DNA of 34,205 nt from a virus (lineage: Duplodnaviria; Heunggongvirae; Uroviricota; Caudoviricetes): IMG/VR virus record IMGVR_UViG_2579778753_000004. One strand, given 5' to 3'. The notes beneath the pieces are model-generated. The model saw only the letters and a program-made list of their open reading frames with translations. It made no database searches and was not told the DNA's origin. This document shows positions 2,261-12,399 of the stretch, piece after piece (the first letter of the stretch is position 1; the number at the start of each line of letters is the position of its first letter). A program made the position numbers and the translations under genes.

Positions 2261-2839
2261 TTAACTGCTCCCGTGGTTATAGCTACCGTCATAGTTGACG
2301 GTGTTGTTGTAGCGAATGGCGACAGACTGATACTCAAGGCTCGCCAGATGGCAGCGGGCCGGAGCAAAGGCAGCGAGCGTCTGGCGTAAAAGTGCTGCCT
2401 GATCGTTAGTAATGGGCTGCTGAAGGATGACGCGATAGACCGCCCAGGCTTCTGCATCGCCATGGACGAAAAGCCCGTTGTACGTGTGTTTGCCGTCGTA
2501 GCCAATCTGGCCAGTGCCTTCAATCAGATCCACTTCGCCGAAGCCGAAACGGCGGATAATTTCCCGGATTGACCACGGCGTCCCTTTATAGCGGTGCAGC
2601 TCGATAGCAGATTTGATAAGCATGCGGCGTACATCGTCCGATTCCGCCAGCTCCCAGCCATCGCCAAACAGCGAGAACTGCTCGCCCAGCCATGGCAGCG
2701 CGGAACTGTCGACGATATCGACGAGATAGACCATCAGTACGCTCAGGTCGATGTTATCCAGCCGCCCGGCCAGTTTTCCCAGCGTTCTGAGGCTGATATC
2801 ACCCTCAAGCGGCGGCGGGAGTTGTAGCGGCTCAGCCAT
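2261..2839 (-). CDS. Tail protein I-like (P2 gpI / Mu gp48 family)
   Basis: 192 aa between baseplate J-like and fibre genes, the conserved P2/Mu order. Confidence 0.65.
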   Translation of the reverse strand: MAEPLQLPPPLEGDISLRTLGKLAGRLDNIDLSVLMVYLVDIVDSSALPWLGEQFSLFGDGWELAESDDVRRMLIKSAIELHRYKGTPWSIREIIRRFGFGEVDLIEGTGQIGYDGKHTYNGLFVHGDAEAWAVYRVILQQPITNDQAALLRQTLAAFAPARCHLASLEYQSVAIRYNNTVNYDGSYNHGSS

Positions 2840-3935
2840 CGGACACCCCGGTCATGTTAAGAGTGATCGCCGTGCAGTTTGCCCATTCGTTTTCTGCCAC
2901 CACCTTCAGCACCGGTGTCACCAGTTCGACCTGGTAGACCCCGGCAACGGACAGCACGCTGATAATCTGGCTGGGGACAATATCGCGCCCCAGCGTGGCG
3001 GTACGGGACGCTACCCAGTTCTGTATGGCGCTGTTGGCGTTGTCCTTTATAGAGTTAGCATCCTGGTCACGATAGATAGTGATGTTGGCTTCAATGGCGT
3101 AATCCACCTGCACAGGTGTTTTAGCCCGCACGGTATCAGTGAGCGGCCTGACTTTTTCGTCCGAGCATAAACTCTCTACAAGCGTAAGGATGCTGTCGTC
3201 CGGCAAGCCGGTGCTGAGCAGCGGATACAGTTCTACAGTGCCGGGAACCGGGGAAAGCACGGCAACATCGACAATATTGGGATGGGCCTGCATGGCATGA
3301 AAGCGGTATGCCATACGGCTTCCGGCGTTGGTGAATGATTCCGGGGCCAGTTTGATACGCTCGCGGAGCCTGTCATTGTCTTCCTGCTCAGAACCGCCAG
3401 AACTGGCCGCCATATTGGTCACCTGCAGGTCGACGTTATCAATCTCATCGAGCAACTGACGGACCTGCGCAGGCTGCCAGCCGTTGCCTGCGGCTCCCGG
3501 CTCGGTACAGGTGGCCGTGGCATTGACAAGCAGCAATCCGGCTTTCAGCACTACGTCCGTATCGGTTGCAAAAATAATGCTGTCGGAAGCGCTGACGCGG
3601 GTACCTGCCGGAATCAGCACATCAATGGCCAGTTCCTCATCCACGGAGAACTGGAGCGTGGTGGTGGCAGGCTGCGCGGCCAGTCGGTATACACCAACCA
3701 GTTCACCGAGGTAATCAATCATCGGCTCACGGGCAAAGGCGACCAGATTCTGTTTGGCCGCTTCCTGCGCCGCCACCCTGACCAGCATTTCGCGGTATGC
3801 CCACAGGTCAATCAACAGGCGCTCAGCCTGAGCGGGGTATAGCGTCTTGCCAGTTGCGGCTTCGTACTGTGCAATCATTTCAGCCGTGATTTTGTCAGCA
3901 TCACGTTCAATAAAATCGGGTTCTGTCAGCGCCAT
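2832..3935 (-). CDS. Baseplate J-like protein (P2 gpJ / Mu gp47 family)
   Basis: 367 aa, position and size; overlaps neighbours by a few nt. Confidence 0.7.
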   Translation of the reverse strand: MALTEPDFIERDADKITAEMIAQYEAATGKTLYPAQAERLLIDLWAYREMLVRVAAQEAAKQNLVAFAREPMIDYLGELVGVYRLAAQPATTTLQFSVDEELAIDVLIPAGTRVSASDSIIFATDTDVVLKAGLLLVNATATCTEPGAAGNGWQPAQVRQLLDEIDNVDLQVTNMAASSGGSEQEDNDRLRERIKLAPESFTNAGSRMAYRFHAMQAHPNIVDVAVLSPVPGTVELYPLLSTGLPDDSILTLVESLCSDEKVRPLTDTVRAKTPVQVDYAIEANITIYRDQDANSIKDNANSAIQNWVASRTATLGRDIVPSQIISVLSVAGVYQVELVTPVLKVVAENEWANCTAITLNMTGVSDG

Positions 3936-4273
3936 AGCAACTCCTGAGTCCGGGGTTGTCCGTCAGAGCCTTTCCAGCTCACCCGGAGCGTAAGATGTTC
4001 GCCGTCGACGGCGGGTTTAACCGACATAAGCTGGCAGCGAGGCTCCCAGCGGCGAATGGCATCGACGGATTCGCGCACCACATGCGGAATAGCCCGGTCA
4101 ATAGGCCAGTCGATATAAAGGTGCAGATTGCTGCCGAACTCCGGGCGATGCGGGTCGCTGCCGCGAGGAGTACGCAGGATGATTTGAATGGCCTGCCAGA
4201 TATCATCCAGCCCCCGGACGATTTCGCCAGGGGCCTGCAGAGCCGGTTGCCAGAATACTGAGGTTGTTTTCAT
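3926..4273 (-). CDS. Baseplate wedge protein, GPW/gp25 family
   Basis: 115 aa, gp25-like size and synteny between V-like and J-like genes. Confidence 0.7.
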   Translation of the reverse strand: MKTTSVFWQPALQAPGEIVRGLDDIWQAIQIILRTPRGSDPHRPEFGSNLHLYIDWPIDRAIPHVVRESVDAIRRWEPRCQLMSVKPAVDGEHLTLRVSWKGSDGQPRTQELLWR

Positions 4274-6212: not shown

Positions 6213-7093
6213 ACACTCCTCGCCAGAATTTTGGCTGCCATGGTGCTTAACCCCGGCGACATACGGGTGAAGGTGGTGCTGGCGGAGTTAAGCTGCCCGG
6301 AAACGGCATCCAGCGCCGCTGCGATATTGCTGCCGTCCACGCCGCTCAGTGAAGACTGTGCCTGTTGTACATACGTGGCCGCATCACTGGTGGCTCTGGC
6401 CAGACTGATGGCATCAGGCATGGATTCAGAAAGCGCATTAAATGCCGGAACGCTTTGACCCAACGCCCCGGACACGTTGCCCAGCCCGCTCATCAACCCC
6501 GGTACGCGGGTCAGTGCAACGGCGGGGTTATCCTTCATTTTCTGCGCCACCCGAACGGCACTGATGGTGGTCTGGAGAACAGACTGCGCCTGTTTGGCGT
6601 AGTTGACGCCGTCGCGGACGTACTGCGCTACCCCGGAAGGTGAAGGAACGGCACCGGAGACCGCCCCGACGCCGGGAACCTGCGTGCGTATTGCGGGTGG
6701 CTGTAGCGGGTTTTTCGGGTCGCCGATGTACTCCCGGAGAGACGCGGTGGCATTGACGGCCAGCACGTTGCCGGTGCTGTCGGTCTGCTCGCTGGTCGCA
6801 GTAACATCGGTAATCACGAACCAGCCGCGATAGTCACCGTTGCCGAAGACCAGCGCCAGCGCTTGATGGGCCTTCATGGCCGTTCGCAGTCTCGCCAGCT
6901 CCACGTCGGGCACACAATAGTGCTGATGGAAGACCAGGCTTATCTGGATTTCGTCCAGCTTATCGCCAACGAACTGCAGGCCGGGCTTACCCTCGATACG
7001 GGGATGCTCCGCATAATCGACGCCGAACGTGACCTCGAAGCCGTCCCAGTAGGTAATCAGTTCAAACTCAATATCACCCAATACTGCAAACAT
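6209..7093 (-). CDS. P2 gpU-like / Mu N (DNA circularisation)-like tail protein
   Basis: 294 aa directly after the tape measure gene; stop/start overlap with neighbours. Confidence 0.55.
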   Translation of the reverse strand: MFAVLGDIEFELITYWDGFEVTFGVDYAEHPRIEGKPGLQFVGDKLDEIQISLVFHQHYCVPDVELARLRTAMKAHQALALVFGNGDYRGWFVITDVTATSEQTDSTGNVLAVNATASLREYIGDPKNPLQPPAIRTQVPGVGAVSGAVPSPSGVAQYVRDGVNYAKQAQSVLQTTISAVRVAQKMKDNPAVALTRVPGLMSGLGNVSGALGQSVPAFNALSESMPDAISLARATSDAATYVQQAQSSLSGVDGSNIAAALDAVSGQLNSASTTFTRMSPGLSTMAAKILARSV

Positions 7094-9558
7094 CAGCTGT
7101 ACCTCCTGCGTTGTTGCTGAGCCAGCAGACGCTCCAGCATTTTCTCCAGCTCATGCAGGCTCATATTCAGTACGCCGGTCAACCCGTCAGGCGCTGCGGT
7201 TTCTTTGCCATTGAGGAAAAACTGAGGATTAAAGCTGACCTGGATACCGCCAGATGTTCCGCTGCCAGTTGCAGCTGCGCCACGACCTGAATATCCCGCC
7301 GCCATGATTTCCGGCGACGGGATACGGGGAACATCCGGTGTCATTTCAGTGGCCAGACGCTGCCCGGCCAGTGCAGCAAGTGGTGTGGTGCGCTGCAGGC
7401 CGATAGCGGCCCCCTGCGCAATGTTGTCACCAAAGCCTATAAACACACGGCTCGGCGAATGAATGCCCAGCTTTTCCTTAAACCAGCCGCCAACACTGTC
7501 GCCCATGTCTGTGACGGTAGTTTTGAGCGACTCCCATTTGTTTTTGATGCCGTTTATTAACCCGTCGATAAGATGGCCACCGAAGTCGGTGAACTTCGCT
7601 GGCAGATCAACACCGAGGTATTTCAGCGCAGCCGCAAAGGCTTTATAGAGCAGACCAACCGGCGACCAGTTAATCAGCAGCTTACCAATCCCCACGACAC
7701 CGCCATTAAACGCCTCTTTAATGTCAGCCCAGCGCTGTTTAAACCAGCTACTGACTGCGCCCCAGTTGCGATAAATAAGGTAAGCTGCTGCCGCGACGGC
7801 GGTGATGGCGAGACCAATGGGATTCATCAGCAGCGCCCGGCCAATCCAGAGAACGGCCCGCCCGGCGATCATAATGCCGCGAACCAGCCCACCTGACAGC
7901 ACACCACCCAGTGTTCTGGCTCCTCTGGCGACGGCGCTGAAGCCGGTCACCAGCCAGCGGAGCTTACCGCCTTCACCGAGTGCAAGCGACAGTCGAAGCC
8001 AGTTGGCCCGCAGTAAAACGGCATTTTTCCAGACGTTAACAAAGGGGGAAATAAGGAGATTCAGCCCCAGCTTGAGACCGATAGTGGCCATCTTGAAAGC
8101 GAGTAATGCTCCTACAACCTTTATGGTGCCGCTGACGATTTGCGGGTTTGCCGCTATCCATTTGCCGACACTGTCCATTAAAGGAATAAAAGTCTCACCC
8201 AGTTGGATCAAGGCCGGGCGTAGTGACTCACCAATGCTGATGGCTGCCTCGTTAAAACCAATCTGAGTTCTGCGCCAACGACCTTCGAGCGTATTATTTT
8301 GTTTTGCAGCATCCTTATCCAGCGTAGACATTGCTGACGGGGTATTCATTTCCTGCTTGCTGGAAAGGTATTTATCCCAGCCCTGACGCATTGACAGTAA
8401 ATGGTTAACGGTCTGAATATCAGTGAAGACTTCTGCCAGACCAAATGACTCCATTAGCTTCTGCTGGCCTTCCTGATCGCCTCTTGAGCCTGCTGCTTTC
8501 CATTGCTGTAAAAACGCCTTACCTTTACCGTCGATAAAACGGTTGGCAATCATCAGTGAGGCTTCATACTGTGAGAAGCCCTGAGCGACGTAATTCTGCA
8601 TTGACCCCTGGTAATCCACCCCGGCTTTAGCATATTTCTGGATGGTATCTCCGCGCCCCATCGCCGCCAGCCAGTTTGACATATTGGTGACGGCCTCTTC
8701 CGCTGAGCCGCTGCCTTTACCAACTTCCAGACTGGCGACGATCTGGGTAATCGCATCTTTTCCATAAATACCACGAGCAGCGAAGGCTTTAGCCATACCG
8801 GGTAATGCTTTTGCCATATCCTTCAGCTCAAATGACCCAAGTTTGGCTCCTGTTGCCGCAATACCAAATGCCTGTTCAAGTTCTTTCGCATCAGTGATTC
8901 TGAGTGCATCGCTGAAGGCATAAGTCATTTTGGCAAGGTCGGTCATATCGGCTTTGGTTGCTGTAGCGGTCTTTCCAAGCATCTCTGCAAACGTTGCTGC
9001 CCGTTCGGGGGCCATACCATCAGCAACTAATTGTCCGACTCCCCCTAACAGAGACTCCTGCAGTTGGTTAACCTTCAGCGAGGCCTGTCTGATAGCCAGG
9101 CCAATTGCACGTTCCTGCCTTGAATCCAGATCACCAGTGACACTGATATCCCGCAACTGCGATTCAAACGAGGCATATTGTTTGACTGAGGCCATGACCG
9201 GTGCACCCAGCGTTCGGGCGATGCCGTAAGTCTCTGCTCCCTGACCATAGAGCGCCATACGGTTGGACTTCAGCGCATCACTGGTGGCCGACACCGCCGA
9301 CAGACGGCGCTGCTGGCGCTCAATTTGCTCCATTGTGCGGCTTACCCGCAGCAGGTCGCTGTTGAGGCGCTGCATCCGGGAAGAACCCAACTGACCATAG
9401 CGTTCTGTTGCACGGGTTAAGGCGTTTTGGCGTTCCTGCAGGCGGCGCGATGTATCGCCCAGGGAATCAAGGGCGCGTCGGGTACCGCTGACGGCTGAGC
9501 GGAAGCTACTCCCGACAATGCCGCCAATAATGACGCCGACTGAAAATTCACTGGCCAC
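7093..9558 (-). CDS. Tail tape measure protein
   Basis: 821 aa, Ala/Gly-rich with hydrophobic segments, downstream of the chaperone; RBS AGAGGA before ATG. Confidence 0.85.
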   Translation of the reverse strand: MASEFSVGVIIGGIVGSSFRSAVSGTRRALDSLGDTSRRLQERQNALTRATERYGQLGSSRMQRLNSDLLRVSRTMEQIERQQRRLSAVSATSDALKSNRMALYGQGAETYGIARTLGAPVMASVKQYASFESQLRDISVTGDLDSRQERAIGLAIRQASLKVNQLQESLLGGVGQLVADGMAPERAATFAEMLGKTATATKADMTDLAKMTYAFSDALRITDAKELEQAFGIAATGAKLGSFELKDMAKALPGMAKAFAARGIYGKDAITQIVASLEVGKGSGSAEEAVTNMSNWLAAMGRGDTIQKYAKAGVDYQGSMQNYVAQGFSQYEASLMIANRFIDGKGKAFLQQWKAAGSRGDQEGQQKLMESFGLAEVFTDIQTVNHLLSMRQGWDKYLSSKQEMNTPSAMSTLDKDAAKQNNTLEGRWRRTQIGFNEAAISIGESLRPALIQLGETFIPLMDSVGKWIAANPQIVSGTIKVVGALLAFKMATIGLKLGLNLLISPFVNVWKNAVLLRANWLRLSLALGEGGKLRWLVTGFSAVARGARTLGGVLSGGLVRGIMIAGRAVLWIGRALLMNPIGLAITAVAAAAYLIYRNWGAVSSWFKQRWADIKEAFNGGVVGIGKLLINWSPVGLLYKAFAAALKYLGVDLPAKFTDFGGHLIDGLINGIKNKWESLKTTVTDMGDSVGGWFKEKLGIHSPSRVFIGFGDNIAQGAAIGLQRTTPLAALAGQRLATEMTPDVPRIPSPEIMAAGYSGRGAAATGSGTSGGIQVSFNPQFFLNGKETAAPDGLTGVLNMSLHELEKMLERLLAQQQRRRYS

Positions 9559-9753
9559 GGTGGTTATCCTCTGAAAGCGGAAAAACGGAAGGAAAATGTC
9601 TGAGAGCCATGCAGAACAGCCGCGAGTAGCGGCTGTTAAGTGATGAGGAGTTAATGATTATCGCCGAACTCGCTTCTGATTTGCACTTCAGCCTGCTCCA
9701 GCCACATCTCCAGATCGTCAGTATCGAGGGCATCAATCTCCCCCGGCTGAAAT

Positions 9754-10068
9754 CTAAACCACCTCGCCAGCAGCCCCTGCGCCTGCATCAGCGTTTTCGT
9801 CGCTCTTGCCCAGCCCAGTGACTTGCTGAAATCGTTTCTGCAGCTCCATGTAGTCGGCAAGATCCATATTATCGAGGTCTTCCGGAAGAATACCGGTGCT
9901 ACGGGCAATCAGCGGCTCGTCCCAGTCAGCCGGGTCTTTACTGATTTTGCGCACCTGCTTCAGGTCTTTGACCGTCAGGCGTTTCAGTTCAACCTGCTCA
10001 ACTCTGGTGCCAGCAGCGGTGGTGAAGGGGTAAGACAGCTTAAAAGTATCGGATTGGGTTTGTGACAT
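9754..10068 (-). CDS. Tail assembly chaperone (lambda G / P2 E analogue)
   Basis: 104 aa acidic protein between tube and tape measure genes; a +1-frame ORF continues to 9651 (see findings). Confidence 0.7.
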   Translation of the reverse strand: MSQTQSDTFKLSYPFTTAAGTRVEQVELKRLTVKDLKQVRKISKDPADWDEPLIARSTGILPEDLDNMDLADYMELQKRFQQVTGLGKSDENADAGAGAAGEVV

Positions 10069-10135: not shown

Positions 10136-10160
10136 TAAGAAGAAAGGGGCCGAAGCCCCT
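10136..10160 (-). terminator. Candidate intrinsic terminator after the small tail-operon ORF
   Basis: On the minus strand AGGGGC-UUCG-GCCCCU followed by UUUCUUCUUAAU, 6 nt after the stop of ORF 10167-10448. Confidence 0.5.
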
Positions 10161-10166
10161 GTGATA

Positions 10167-10448
10167 TCAGTGAGTGCGAAAGCCTTTGCAGTTACGCAGG
10201 AAGGCGATAAGAAGTACCTTTCCTTCAGATTTGCCGATGCCGGTGAACCAGTGGTCAGGTGGCTCCCATGCCTCAATCAGGTCAGCGAGCTTTCGTGCTT
10301 TGGAGCGTGTGCAGTCAATCGGGTCATTGGTTTTCTGGGTATTAAAAAGGTTTTCCACCCCTGAAATATCAAGGATGGTAAACCACGTACCATTCCCCAT
10401 GCCAATCGAACCACAGTTCCCGCCTTTATCTTCAATCTCGACGGTCAC
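10167..10448 (-). CDS. Hypothetical protein (possible moron between tube and chaperone genes)
   Basis: 93 aa from a GTG start with GGGGG RBS inside the tube gene 3' end (internal ATG gives 77 aa); no family recognised; followed by its own terminator. Confidence 0.5.
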   Translation of the reverse strand: MTVEIEDKGGNCGSIGMGNGTWFTILDISGVENLFNTQKTNDPIDCTRSKARKLADLIEAWEPPDHWFTGIGKSEGKVLLIAFLRNCKGFRTH

Positions 10449-10450
10449 CG

Positions 10451-10972
10451 TCAGCCCCCGATGTTGATGCGGTAGTCGGTCAACTGGTCAATGCCGCCGA
10501 CGCGGAAGATGTTGGCCAGATAGTCCAGCTCCAGCAACTCTTCACCATCCAGTACCTGCTTGATGTACGTGCAGGTGAAGCTACTGGAGAACTCGGCGTT
10601 CTCATGCTGTTTGAACGTCCCCAGCGGGTTCTTCTTAAACATGATCGTCAGGAAAGTGACCAGCGGAATTTCGTCAATCAGCCCCTGCGAGCTGTAGCGC
10701 TGAACGCTGGAACGGCACTGCAGCGCCAGCGACTTATACGGGTTCGCGGCAGACAGCATCGCGTCGCGGTAAAAGCTGTTCCACTTGATCTCGCCCTCAA
10801 GCTTGTCGAAGCCAGCAGGGAGTTCCACCTTGCCCACCATCCCCAGCGCCTTATGCTCCTGCATGGTCATGGAGACGTCAGGCAGTTTGACCTCCTCGGC
10901 CCGGCCCAGCAGGTTAGCGCCATCCAGGTAGATGTTGGCATTCGTGATGCGGTTGATCTCAATCTTTGCCAT
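10451..10972 (-). CDS. Tail tube protein (Mu M / P2 FII family)
   Basis: 173 aa immediately downstream of sheath gene. Confidence 0.8.
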   Translation of the reverse strand: MAKIEINRITNANIYLDGANLLGRAEEVKLPDVSMTMQEHKALGMVGKVELPAGFDKLEGEIKWNSFYRDAMLSAANPYKSLALQCRSSVQRYSSQGLIDEIPLVTFLTIMFKKNPLGTFKQHENAEFSSSFTCTYIKQVLDGEELLELDYLANIFRVGGIDQLTDYRINIGG

Positions 10973-12399
10973 CAGCTATTCCCCTTCAGGGTTAACAGGT
11001 ATTCCGAGGTGATCTCGGTCTCAAACGTCAGTCGCTCCAGCGGCGGTGGCGGCGTGTATTTGTAGCTCAGCAACAGATGACCGGCGGCCAGCTCCATCTC
11101 TTCATTACGGGCCGGATCAAACCAGCAACTGAAGCCCAGCAGTGCACCGTCGCCAATCAGCTTGCGACCGTAGGCGTTGACCGACTCCGTCAGCGCATCA
11201 ATCAGTGCCTGGGTAATCGGCATGTCGATGTACTGCTGGCTGAAATAACGCAGGGACTCGTTGATAACATCACCGGTGCGGCGAACGTTCTCAAAGTTGC
11301 GCATATGGGTGACCGTTGGCCATGCTGCCGTCCGGTTGCCCCACAGACGCAGGCCGCTGCCGTAGCTGCTGAAGACCGTAGTGATGCCCTGTTCGTTGAG
11401 CAGGTTCACCTCGCTCTGCGGGTCATCAATCATTGCCGACAGCTGGCGCTCCACGCCGGTGATACCCAGAATCTCCTGGTTGGAGGACGACCACCAGTAG
11501 CCCTTGTCCAGGTCGACCTTGGCACGCAGACCTGCAGCACGCTGGCTCAGCGGCTCCAGCCGTTCGCTGTTGGTGGCCGCGTCGTACACCTTGACGTGCG
11601 GATAGCACAGACGGACGCGGTCGGAGCTGGTATTGAAGTTAATGGTGCCTTCCGGGCCACGCCCCGCCAGAGCCTGCGCAAAAGTGGTACCAATCGGCGC
11701 GTCGATGTAGGTCACCGCGCCCAGCTTCTCAGCCATGGCGATAAGCTCAACCGAGACGCTGTTCTGGGTGCAGAATACCGGGGCAATCAGAATTTTGGCG
11801 AAGTAGCCAAACAGGTTGAAGCTGTCGTTAAGCAACTTCATGCCGGTACGGTTGCCTGCCGCGTTAACGGTACCGATGATATCAGCCGGGGTGACTTTGG
11901 TCGGATCGGCATAGTTATAGCTGGCCTTCACCGTTGCATCTGCAGCAATGCTTTTACCAAGATTAGTAATCACCCCGGTCTGCGCATCAAGCGAGTAGTC
12001 CTGACCTTCCACATAAGGCTGACCGTCGCTGTCCGGTTTCAGTACCAGCTGCGCGATCACCGGATTAGCCAGCTGTGCCTTGCCCGTCGCCTTTTCGAAT
12101 GTTACGTCTTCATCGGCCACAGCGGTTTTATGCACAGCCGGATCAAGCACGTTAATGACCAGAACGGTGCCTGCCCCATGGTCGTAGATCGCATCCAGTG
12201 CCTGCGGAATGGTAAAGCCAGTGAGCTGGCTGCCAAACGCCGCTGCATCTTTCTCAGACAGGCACTGCACCAGCGTATTGACGTCTCCCATTGGGGCGGT
12301 ACCAATCAGGCCAATGACGGCGGATTTCACCGTTTTAACCGGGCGGGCACCGTTTTCCACCTCAATGGTTTCGACGCCATGCAGATAGTTAGCTGACAT
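10972..12399 (-). CDS. Contractile tail sheath protein (Mu L / P2 FI family)
   Basis: 475 aa, sheath-like size and synteny. Confidence 0.85.
   Translation of the reverse strand: MSANYLHGVETIEVENGARPVKTVKSAVIGLIGTAPMGDVNTLVQCLSEKDAAAFGSQLTGFTIPQALDAIYDHGAGTVLVINVLDPAVHKTAVADEDVTFEKATGKAQLANPVIAQLVLKPDSDGQPYVEGQDYSLDAQTGVITNLGKSIAADATVKASYNYADPTKVTPADIIGTVNAAGNRTGMKLLNDSFNLFGYFAKILIAPVFCTQNSVSVELIAMAEKLGAVTYIDAPIGTTFAQALAGRGPEGTINFNTSSDRVRLCYPHVKVYDAATNSERLEPLSQRAAGLRAKVDLDKGYWWSSSNQEILGITGVERQLSAMIDDPQSEVNLLNEQGITTVFSSYGSGLRLWGNRTAAWPTVTHMRNFENVRRTGDVINESLRYFSQQYIDMPITQALIDALTESVNAYGRKLIGDGALLGFSCWFDPARNEEMELAAGHLLLSYKYTPPPPLERLTFETEITSEYLLTLKGNS

Follow-up and report, generated by a model that had tools for sequence, protein, structure and literature searches.

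How can a tail assembly chaperone gene that closes at a TAG codon also account for a second, protein-like reading frame that runs on past that stop? The question is raised by a minus-strand locus of the virus record IMGVR_UViG_2579778753_000004, a caudoviricete DNA of 34,205 nucleotides (nt) to which we refer, at its whole length, as the window, and it had been posed by an original prediction, made from the sequence alone, that located no slip site. The comparative genomics analysis conducted here suggests an answer in two parts: the extension is very probably made as a frameshift fusion, and the underlying event is probably a +1 ribosomal slip at the sequence CGA_UUU_C. The comparison of relatives would place this slip 24 codons (72 nt) upstream of the TAG and not beside it, and the original prediction found no slip site because the site does not lie near the TAG. 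The elements concerned are the following.

9754-10068, minus strand: open reading frame (ORF) of the tail assembly chaperone, G-like and read in frame 0, with ATG at 10068 and TAG at 9756-9754, 104 amino acids (aa), as given by the ORF list.
9651-9827, minus strand: T- or E'-like extension in the +1 frame, 58 codons followed by TAA at 9653-9651, recognised by its open frame, a match to phrog_8286, a synonymous excess and likely homology to P2 E'.
9828-9834, minus strand: candidate +1 slip site CGA_UUU_C, comprising Arg79 (CGA, 9834-9832), Phe80 (TTT, 9831-9829) and the C at 9828 that would be skipped.
9754-9828, minus strand: dual-coding overlap, in which synonymous and non-synonymous counts switch between frames.

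The layout of the reading frames is as had been described. The ORF list bears out a chaperone ORF that ends at the TAG; the +1 frame (equivalent to -2) is open from 9908 to the TAA at 9653-9651 and terminates in exactly the residues originally quoted (...RWFRFQPGEIDALDTDDLEMWLEQAEVQIRSEFGDNH); and the -1 frame is indeed closed by a TGA (9790-9788, within GCT GAT) and gives a Trp/Cys-rich ORF, at 9736-9548, beyond the TAG. The proposed identity of the chaperone is upheld both by its place between the tube and tape measure genes and by a Pfam match to PF10109 (Phage_TAC_7, E=6.8e-23, 80.9 bits against a cutoff of 25); in PHROG the ORF matches phrog_166, 'tail protein' (E=1.4e-31), and PGAP labels its relatives 'phage tail assembly protein'. 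The extension, which had been taken for a protein-like, acidic and helical-looking tail, matches phrog_8286 (E=1.6e-30) and proves to be a conserved domain. Its acidity is plain in the final 30 residues, which hold 10 Asp and Glu against 1 Lys or Arg (isoelectric point 4.05), but its helices are predicted at low confidence only. In the AlphaFold model of a database fusion, the chaperone domain is confident (predicted local distance difference test, pLDDT, 73-83), with Phe80 contained in its last helix (residues 70-84), and the extension is poorly modelled (pLDDT <60). A Foldseek search against the PDB returned nothing significant, the best matches being YqbN (3klu, E=1.4) and the HK97 chaperone (2ob9, E=5.5), and a sequence search of the PDB gave no matches.

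That the extension is coding is best appreciated in its relatives. In a tblastn search with a trial fusion, 9 of the 11 phage records that matched did so in two pieces with a change of frame, with hosts in Klebsiella, Escherichia, Salmonella, Ralstonia, Pseudomonas and Pasteurella. The comparative set comprised 46 loci from species-representative genomes and 160 from IMG/VR, which reduce to about 140 distinct sequences, and codon-by-codon counts of synonymous and non-synonymous changes were taken along a minimum spanning tree built from 96 unique sequences. These roughly 140 relatives, drawn from Enterobacterales, Ralstonia, Crenobacter, Pseudomonas and Burkholderia, have kept the extension peptide, with the consensus x-L-W/M-x-A-x-x-L-L-A-R-W-F-R-F-Q-P-[S/G]-E-I-[D/N]-x-L-...-[D/E]-[F/L]-E-x-W-L-x-x-A-x-x-Q-I-K. 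Relative to the chaperone, the extension occupies the +1 frame in essentially all the relatives collected, the exceptions being three hard-fused copies (L015, L033 and L201); for one GC-rich locus (L197) the automatic frame call had taken a spurious ORF. BcepMu conforms to this arrangement, its gp42 being the +1-frame extension of gp41. Codons of the extension frame carry mainly synonymous changes (synonymous:non-synonymous counts of, for example, 27:4, 12:1, 13:0 and 16:0), whereas identical positions read in frame 0 carry nearly all non-synonymous ones (2:25, 1:10, 0:8 and 0:24). Judged by these counts, the extension is a genuine coding region under protein-level selection in the +1 frame. 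No start codon is conserved for it, since the only in-frame ATG of the window (9789-9787) reads ACG, ATT or TGG in relatives, nor is any ribosome-binding site conserved among the relatives compared, and conservation of the extension frame starts upstream of all candidate start codons. The comparison argues that the extension is not an independent gene, and the locus presents the arrangement of a G/GT pair, with two overlapping frames, the second of them lacking its own start and conserved at the protein level.

The same counts bear on where the shift takes place. The synonymous excess of frame 0 persists through Phe80 (e.g. 14:0, 13:0 and 24:5) and is gone at the next codon (2:11, then 3:29). 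In the overlap at 9754-9828, frame 0 encodes an unconstrained 24-aa C-terminal tail of the short form, and the +1 frame encodes the linker of the long form and the beginning of its conserved LLARWF motif. The sixth codon of the extension is TGG (Trp, 9812-9810) in 133 of 138 unique sequences, and the two frame-0 codons that overlap this Trp vary: the first is CTG in 50 cases, TTG in 29, GTG in 28 and ATG in 26, and the second may be GGC, GAT, GGT, GCT or GTT. Stop codons set the outer limits. The closest upstream stop in the extension frame lies 8 nt before TTT (in L051) and the closest downstream stop in frame 0 lies 21 nt after it (in L050), so that a site shared by the relatives must fall between -8 and +21 nt of TTT. 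CGA_TTT_C is the sole conserved sequence in that interval compatible with tRNA re-pairing, and in neither frame is the linker from Phe80 to the Trp well conserved. These data bound the site to about 26 nt, and conservation singles out TTT_C within it.

The conservation of this short sequence can be set against that of comparable codons. Phe80 is encoded by TTT in 138 of 138 unique sequences, and the base after it is C in all 138 even though the frame-0 residue begun by that base may be Gln, His, Arg or Leu; the preceding codon is CGA in 133 of 138. Three other conserved Phe codons, used as a control, vary freely (TTC 55 and TTT 12; TTT 89 and TTC 47; TTT 106 and TTC 25), and on the spanning tree other two-fold codons of the frame-0 domain have each undergone about 5 to 15 synonymous changes, as opposed to none at the candidate slip codon, where the two changes counted stem from a one-base misalignment of L050. 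TTT_C is retained in GC-rich relatives, as GCC TTT CGG in L197 and as TCC TTT CGC in BcepMu, at a position for which TTC would be expected in such genomes. As in prfB-type +1 sites, the codon in the ribosomal peptidyl (P) site is able to re-pair at +1, from UUU to UUC, and a net shift of +1 is favoured over -2 because the former re-pairs the tRNA whereas the latter lands on GAU. UUU followed by a pyrimidine is reportedly prone to +1 shifting in E. coli, according to two accounts of which one concerns argI, because tRNA-Phe (anticodon GAA) pairs better with UUC than with UUU. The CGA codon is decoded via inosine-A wobble, and the strength of the codon in the exit (E) site is said in two reports to modulate +1 shifting, weak pairing at that site reportedly raising it. 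Alignment of the relatives, the route to a conserved shift site put forward in the original prediction, has in this way led to CGA_UUU_C (9834-9828), which we regard as the probable site, and +1 as the probable direction.

Several observations nevertheless weigh against this assignment. CGA is not universal, and distant relatives have ACG, GCA, GCC or TCC in its place. Phe80 and Arg79 are conserved residues of the chaperone domain, and the nucleotide conservation is therefore partly driven by the protein; the sequences are, in addition, phylogenetically related, so that the counts are not independent. Efficient +1 sites are driven by a rare or stop codon in the aminoacyl (A) site, but the frame-0 codon after UUU is usually CAG, a common codon, and across relatives it is CAG, CAA, CAT, CGC, CGG or CTG, none of them a rare or stop codon. 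No Shine-Dalgarno-like element is conserved 3 nt upstream, the window sequence there (CAGAAA) not resembling one, and a GGAG found 12 nt upstream of the site in the window is missing from PhiKM-type copies. RNAalifold detected no covarying or conserved RNA structure downstream in 20 diverse sequences, the window's own hairpin in a single-sequence fold reaches only z=-1.9, and an Rfam search returned zero matches. Finally, the frame-0 constraint could end at Phe80 simply because the folded domain ends there, and the slip could occur anywhere in the next 18 nt through a mechanism that does not involve re-pairing.

If the +1 slip at CGA_UUU_C does operate, two proteins would be made from the one start codon of the chaperone gene. 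Most ribosomes would stay in frame 0 and yield the 104-aa chaperone (11.5 kDa, computed). A minority would slip forward with peptidyl-tRNA-Phe on UUU (Phe80, 9831-9829); the tRNA would re-pair one base on, at UUC, C9828 would be skipped and the +1 frame would be read to the TAA at 9653-9651. The weak inosine-A pair of CGA in the E site may loosen frame maintenance, which is one possible route to the slip. The predicted long form, a G-T type fusion, would consist of residues 1-80 followed by SKSLGWARATKTLMQAQGLLARWFRFQPGEIDALDTDDLEMWLEQAEVQIRSEFGDNH, that is, 80 + 58 = 138 aa (15.9 kDa, computed), laid out as a chaperone domain (1-80), a variable linker of about 18 aa that includes the conserved Trp, and an acidic E'/T-like domain that is itself conserved. 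If the lambda G/GT and P2 E/E+E' pairs are a guide, coating of the tape measure protein would fall to the N-terminal domain that both forms share, and recruitment of the tube protein to the rare extension; we propose that the frequency of the shift would therefore set the ratio of the two forms. We infer the ribosomal +1 nature of the event, its occurrence at this particular codon, the help provided by CGA and the roles of both products in tail assembly.

Among other explanations, the one that survives best still strikes us as unlikely. It keeps the shift within the 26-nt interval, but dispenses with the re-pairing of tRNA-Phe in favour of out-of-frame A-site binding downstream, or of a lineage-specific site, and holds that TTT_C is conserved for other reasons. 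The lack of a detectable stimulator is in keeping with such a scheme, as is the poorly conserved stretch from Phe80 to the Trp, which means that the data bound rather than pinpoint the site. Yet the interval shows no other conservation of nucleotides, L050 accommodates only seven codons between TTT and its frame-0 stop with no other re-pairing-compatible site among them, and the invariant synonymous T and the C that follows it would be left unexplained.

A little less likely again is a Mu-style slip on a run of G residues near the stop, either +1 on GCA_GGG_GCU (the GGGG at 9777-9774) or -2/+1 on the five-G run of CC_GGG_GGA (9744-9740). The Mu homologue does shift -2 on a run of five (CGG_GGG_CGA), GGG_G permits perfect +1 re-pairing and is found in most enterobacterial copies, and several 'fused' proteins in the databases join exactly at the five-G run (P0003-P0008; L015). 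In the window, however, the frame-0 TAG comes before the five-G run, which frame-0 ribosomes would therefore never reach, and a junction at that point would remove LLARWFRFQP, the most conserved part of the extension. The four-G run, for its part, is not conserved, reading GGC GCT in five loci (L019, L020, L023, L025 and L040), GGG CCT in L003 and GGG ACT in L014, and it is absent in Photorhabdus and Xenorhabdus. The frame-0 stop precedes the LLARWF motif in L044-49, L050, L052 and L197, and both the synonymous changes of the extension frame and its invariant Trp are found upstream of the two G runs. GGG_G (9777-9774) had been the initial candidate for a +1 site in an alignment of three sequences and was rejected on wider sampling, in which it was not conserved and selection on the extension began upstream of it. 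Nor does the window offer a reachable G run on which tRNA-Gly might re-pair two bases back, as in a Mu-type -2 shift: the four-G run allows only +1, and there is no -2 re-pairing at UUU_C.

We consider it very unlikely that the extension forms a small gene in its own right, translated from a start codon that belongs to it, which is how it is handled by gene callers and in phrog_8286. Such a gene could begin at the in-frame ATG of the window (CTG ATG CAG, 9789-9787) or at the GTG AGA of PhiKM-type copies; stand-alone database calls of 85-86 aa exist (P0105, P0106), and BcepMu gp42 is annotated as an independent ORF. Against this stands the variability of the ATG noted above, with neither start nor ribosome-binding site conserved, and the order of the extension-frame conservation, in which the Trp, then K.L, then LW precede every candidate start. 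In P2, moreover, the homologous domain forms the C-terminus of the chaperone by way of a frameshift (-1), and the sequence indicates the same for Pasteurella phage AFS-2018a, behind A_AAG_GGA (-1). Independent initiation in homologues, an outcome that the original prediction had itself envisaged, was not encountered. Weakest of all, and most improbable, is the notion that only the 104-aa protein is made, the extension being either a relic that is not expressed or a by-product of constraint on the nucleotides, for although the long form has no annotation or proteomic record among the records examined, the extension frame is under strong purifying selection across Beta- and Gammaproteobacteria, its likely homologue P2 gpE+E' is labelled an essential tail protein in the P2 record, and no RNA structure explains the conservation.

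The database also holds continuous single-ORF copies, represented by the loci L201, L015 (Erwinia tracheiphila) and L033 and by the proteins P0001-P0008 and P0064. Between L201 and L197, both IMG/VR metagenome contigs, the differences are two substitutions and a 1-nt deletion that abolishes the frame-0 stop; in the Erwinia tracheiphila copy the five-G run is reduced to four. These copies may be sequencing indels, decaying prophages or true hard-fused variants, and the ready-made fusions were dropped as evidence on the junction because their junctions are scattered. A further oddity is an 8-kb contig titled Arthrobacter sp. GMC3 (L013, NZ_PJIO01000028), which carries an E. coli PhiKM-type copy with an identical 96-nt stretch around the frame-0 stop and probably represents contamination of an actinobacterial assembly.

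Comparison with known frameshift systems brings out what is shared and what is not. In P2, the N-terminal domain of gpE/gpE+E' belongs to the same Pfam family (PF10109) as the window chaperone, the gene sits between FII (tube) and T (tape measure) as in the window, and the slip too takes place on a Phe codon that ends the chaperone domain. The window extension scores below the cutoff against PF06528 (Phage_P2_GpE; 14.8 bits, E=0.02, cutoff 23), in the right position; the same family is matched at E<=1 by 15 extension peptides out of 16, P2's own E' among them, and a 17-peptide extension profile built without P2 aligns to P2 E' in hhalign with 93% probability (E=2.6e-7). The extension is likely to be homologous to P2 E'. 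The direction of the shift, on the other hand, differs: P2 slips -1 at the canonical heptamer of GGT TTT TTG into an extension in the -1 frame, whereas the window extension lies in the +1 frame, its -1 frame is closed by TGA, and no canonical -1 heptamer (X_XXY_YYZ) is found near the end of the first ORF. The products measure 91 and 142 aa in P2 as against 104 and 138 aa in the window, the distance to the FHWPPSE/FRFQPGE motif is 27 residues in P2 and 24 in the window, and the overlap after the slip spans about 6 codons in the former and 24 in the latter. In Pfam coordinates the two Phe codons come within about 3 residues of each other. When a profile of the chaperone domain was aligned directly with P2 gpE and Mu gp41, only the N-termini could be matched up, and we therefore make no claim of residue-exact homology for the Phe codons of P2 and the window.

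The sites of E. coli prfB (CUU_UGA_C) and argI (UUU_Y) share with the window the proposed re-pairing of the P-site tRNA one base downstream. prfB, however, relies on an A-site stop codon together with a Shine-Dalgarno element 3 nt upstream, neither of which is present or conserved in the window clade, and the argI event is reportedly regarded as an error and not as a used signal.

Closer in genomic setting, Mu gp41 undergoes a verified -2 shift (GenBank annotation citing PMID 15469818; review PMC5009743), and the +1/-2 geometry that the original prediction had deemed unusual is accordingly rare but not without precedent. The Mu pair (gp41/Mu_56) has the same net frame geometry as the window, its chaperone matches PF10109 below the cutoff (23.8 bits against 25), and the gene is likewise flanked by those for tube and tape measure, again in a transposable phage. 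Unlike the window, which lacks a conserved or reachable G run and carries a conserved UUU_C, able to re-pair only at +1, 24 codons before the stop, Mu slips on its five-G run 8 codons before the stop, and its extension has no detectable sequence similarity to that of the window. Lambda gpG/gpGT provides two products from one start, in a fixed low ratio, just upstream of the tape measure gene, and neither is in the virion (PMC5009743). We liken the predicted functional logic of the window pair to that of lambda; there is nonetheless no sequence similarity, the lambda shift is -1 on G_GGA_AAG, and lambda is a siphovirus and not a contractile-tail phage. A +1 shift has been proposed, as a likely case, for the tail chaperone of the haloarchaeal myovirus HSTV-2 (PMC5009743), an unrelated archaeal virus that also has a chaperone pair, and the review of Atkins et al. 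(2016) states that tail chaperone shifts may be -1, -2 or +1 depending on the phage (PMC5009743).

Within the wider family, Pasteurella phage AFS-2018a (L053, at about 1730-1900) has this extension domain as well (WWFGWNVSEIEQMTLDELSTWLEQANRQIK), placed in the -1 frame after a canonical A_AAG_GGA heptamer, with only the short ORF annotated, as 'tail assembly protein'; the shift in this phage is presumably -1 at that heptamer. The phenomenon as such is already known, and what would be new is the direction, a site of the type UUU_C with CGA, the 24-codon distance to the stop and the lack of detectable stimulators. Our literature search found no description of a +1 site in BcepMu-like chaperones, and the paper on KS10, a transposable Burkholderia phage, reports that no slip site was found in that phage. 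To the broader proposition we assign a somewhat better than even chance of being right: that a widespread clade of BcepMu-like phages and prophages would use a minimal +1 programmed frameshift, CGA_UUU_C, without a detectable stimulator and with CGA helping in the E site; that this site would be interchangeable in evolution with the -1 site of P2 (U_UUU_UUG) on a similarly placed Phe codon; and that the same two-domain chaperone would in this manner be reached by -1, -2 or +1.

The genomic surroundings of the chaperone are those of a contractile-type tail module, with the following neighbours.

10972-12399, minus strand: tail sheath gene (PF04984/PF17482).
10451-10972, minus strand: tail tube gene (PF04985).
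10167-10448, minus strand: small conserved ORF of 93 aa between the tube and chaperone genes (phrog_1239, E=7e-45, of unknown function; weak DUF7739 match).
7093-9558, minus strand: tape measure protein gene, 821 aa, directly downstream of the chaperone and its extension (PF10145, PhageMin_Tail; phrog_28 and phrog_794, 'tail length tape measure protein').

Read along the minus strand, the order is sheath, tube, small ORF, chaperone, tape measure and then a gpU-like gene. The arrangement of sheath, tube, chaperone and tape measure is the canonical one, and, as in G/GT pairs, the chaperone stands between the major tail or tube gene and the tape measure gene, whose product is by analogy the expected chaperone partner. 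The 93-aa ORF at 10167-10448 has no counterpart at that position in P2 or Mu. With an rve transposase, an AAA ATPase, a Mu-type portal and a P2-type tail, the window is a BcepMu-type transposable phage or prophage with its tail module. Escherichia phage Phi06_2974 B matches the segment 9400-10500 with 100% identity, and of 5426 complete E. coli genomes, 641 (~12%) contain a relative of this segment.

Two hairpins were noted in the vicinity. A terminator-like one, AGGGGCTTCGGCCCCT then TTCTTCTT, occupies 10145-10160 on the minus strand, after the small ORF (10448-10167) and ahead of the chaperone start (10068), and might act as an attenuator of the transcription that enters the chaperone and tape measure genes. 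The other, a GC-rich 7-bp hairpin (CAGCCGC-loop-GCGGCTG, 9617-9635, minus strand), lies just past the TAA of the extension and about 60 nt before the tape measure start; KP12 and PhiKM have the same stem with a different loop, and the terminator scan did not call it because it has no T tract.

Present annotation takes little account of the long form. Only the short chaperone is annotated in KP12, in PhiKM and in one E. coli genome processed by RefSeq/PGAP, and the same holds for 20 sampled E. coli matches, in which the short chaperone is the only one listed under the match. With about 640 E. coli genomes harbouring a relative and all 20 of those sampled annotated in this way, a tail protein that is probably essential is therefore likely to be going unannotated. 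In E. coli M-17 (L003, NZ_CP068394), no PGAP feature covers the extension at 3767-3942 and the locus tags skip from RS09900 to RS09910, a jump that suggests that a gene model was dropped there at some point. The BcepMu record (L217, AY539836), at 2603-3364, names gp42/gp43 as a lambda G/T frameshift pair. This label is doubtful because gp42 is the +1-frame, E'-like extension of gp41, with TCC TTT CGC at the equivalent Phe, and the G/T assignment of the record is probably wrong.

Programmed +1 frameshifts are rare in bacteria and phages, and most of the known ones depend on a stop or rare codon. If the reading proposed here is true, a UUU-pyrimidine +1 site that is both conserved and required, and that has CGA in the E site, would constitute a natural test of how P- and E-site codons alone fix a low shift rate. 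For the family as a whole, it would mean that one homologous two-domain chaperone has been switched in the course of evolution between -1 shifts, in P2 and in a Pasteurella Mu-like phage, a -2 shift, in Mu, and a +1 shift, in the BcepMu-like clade.

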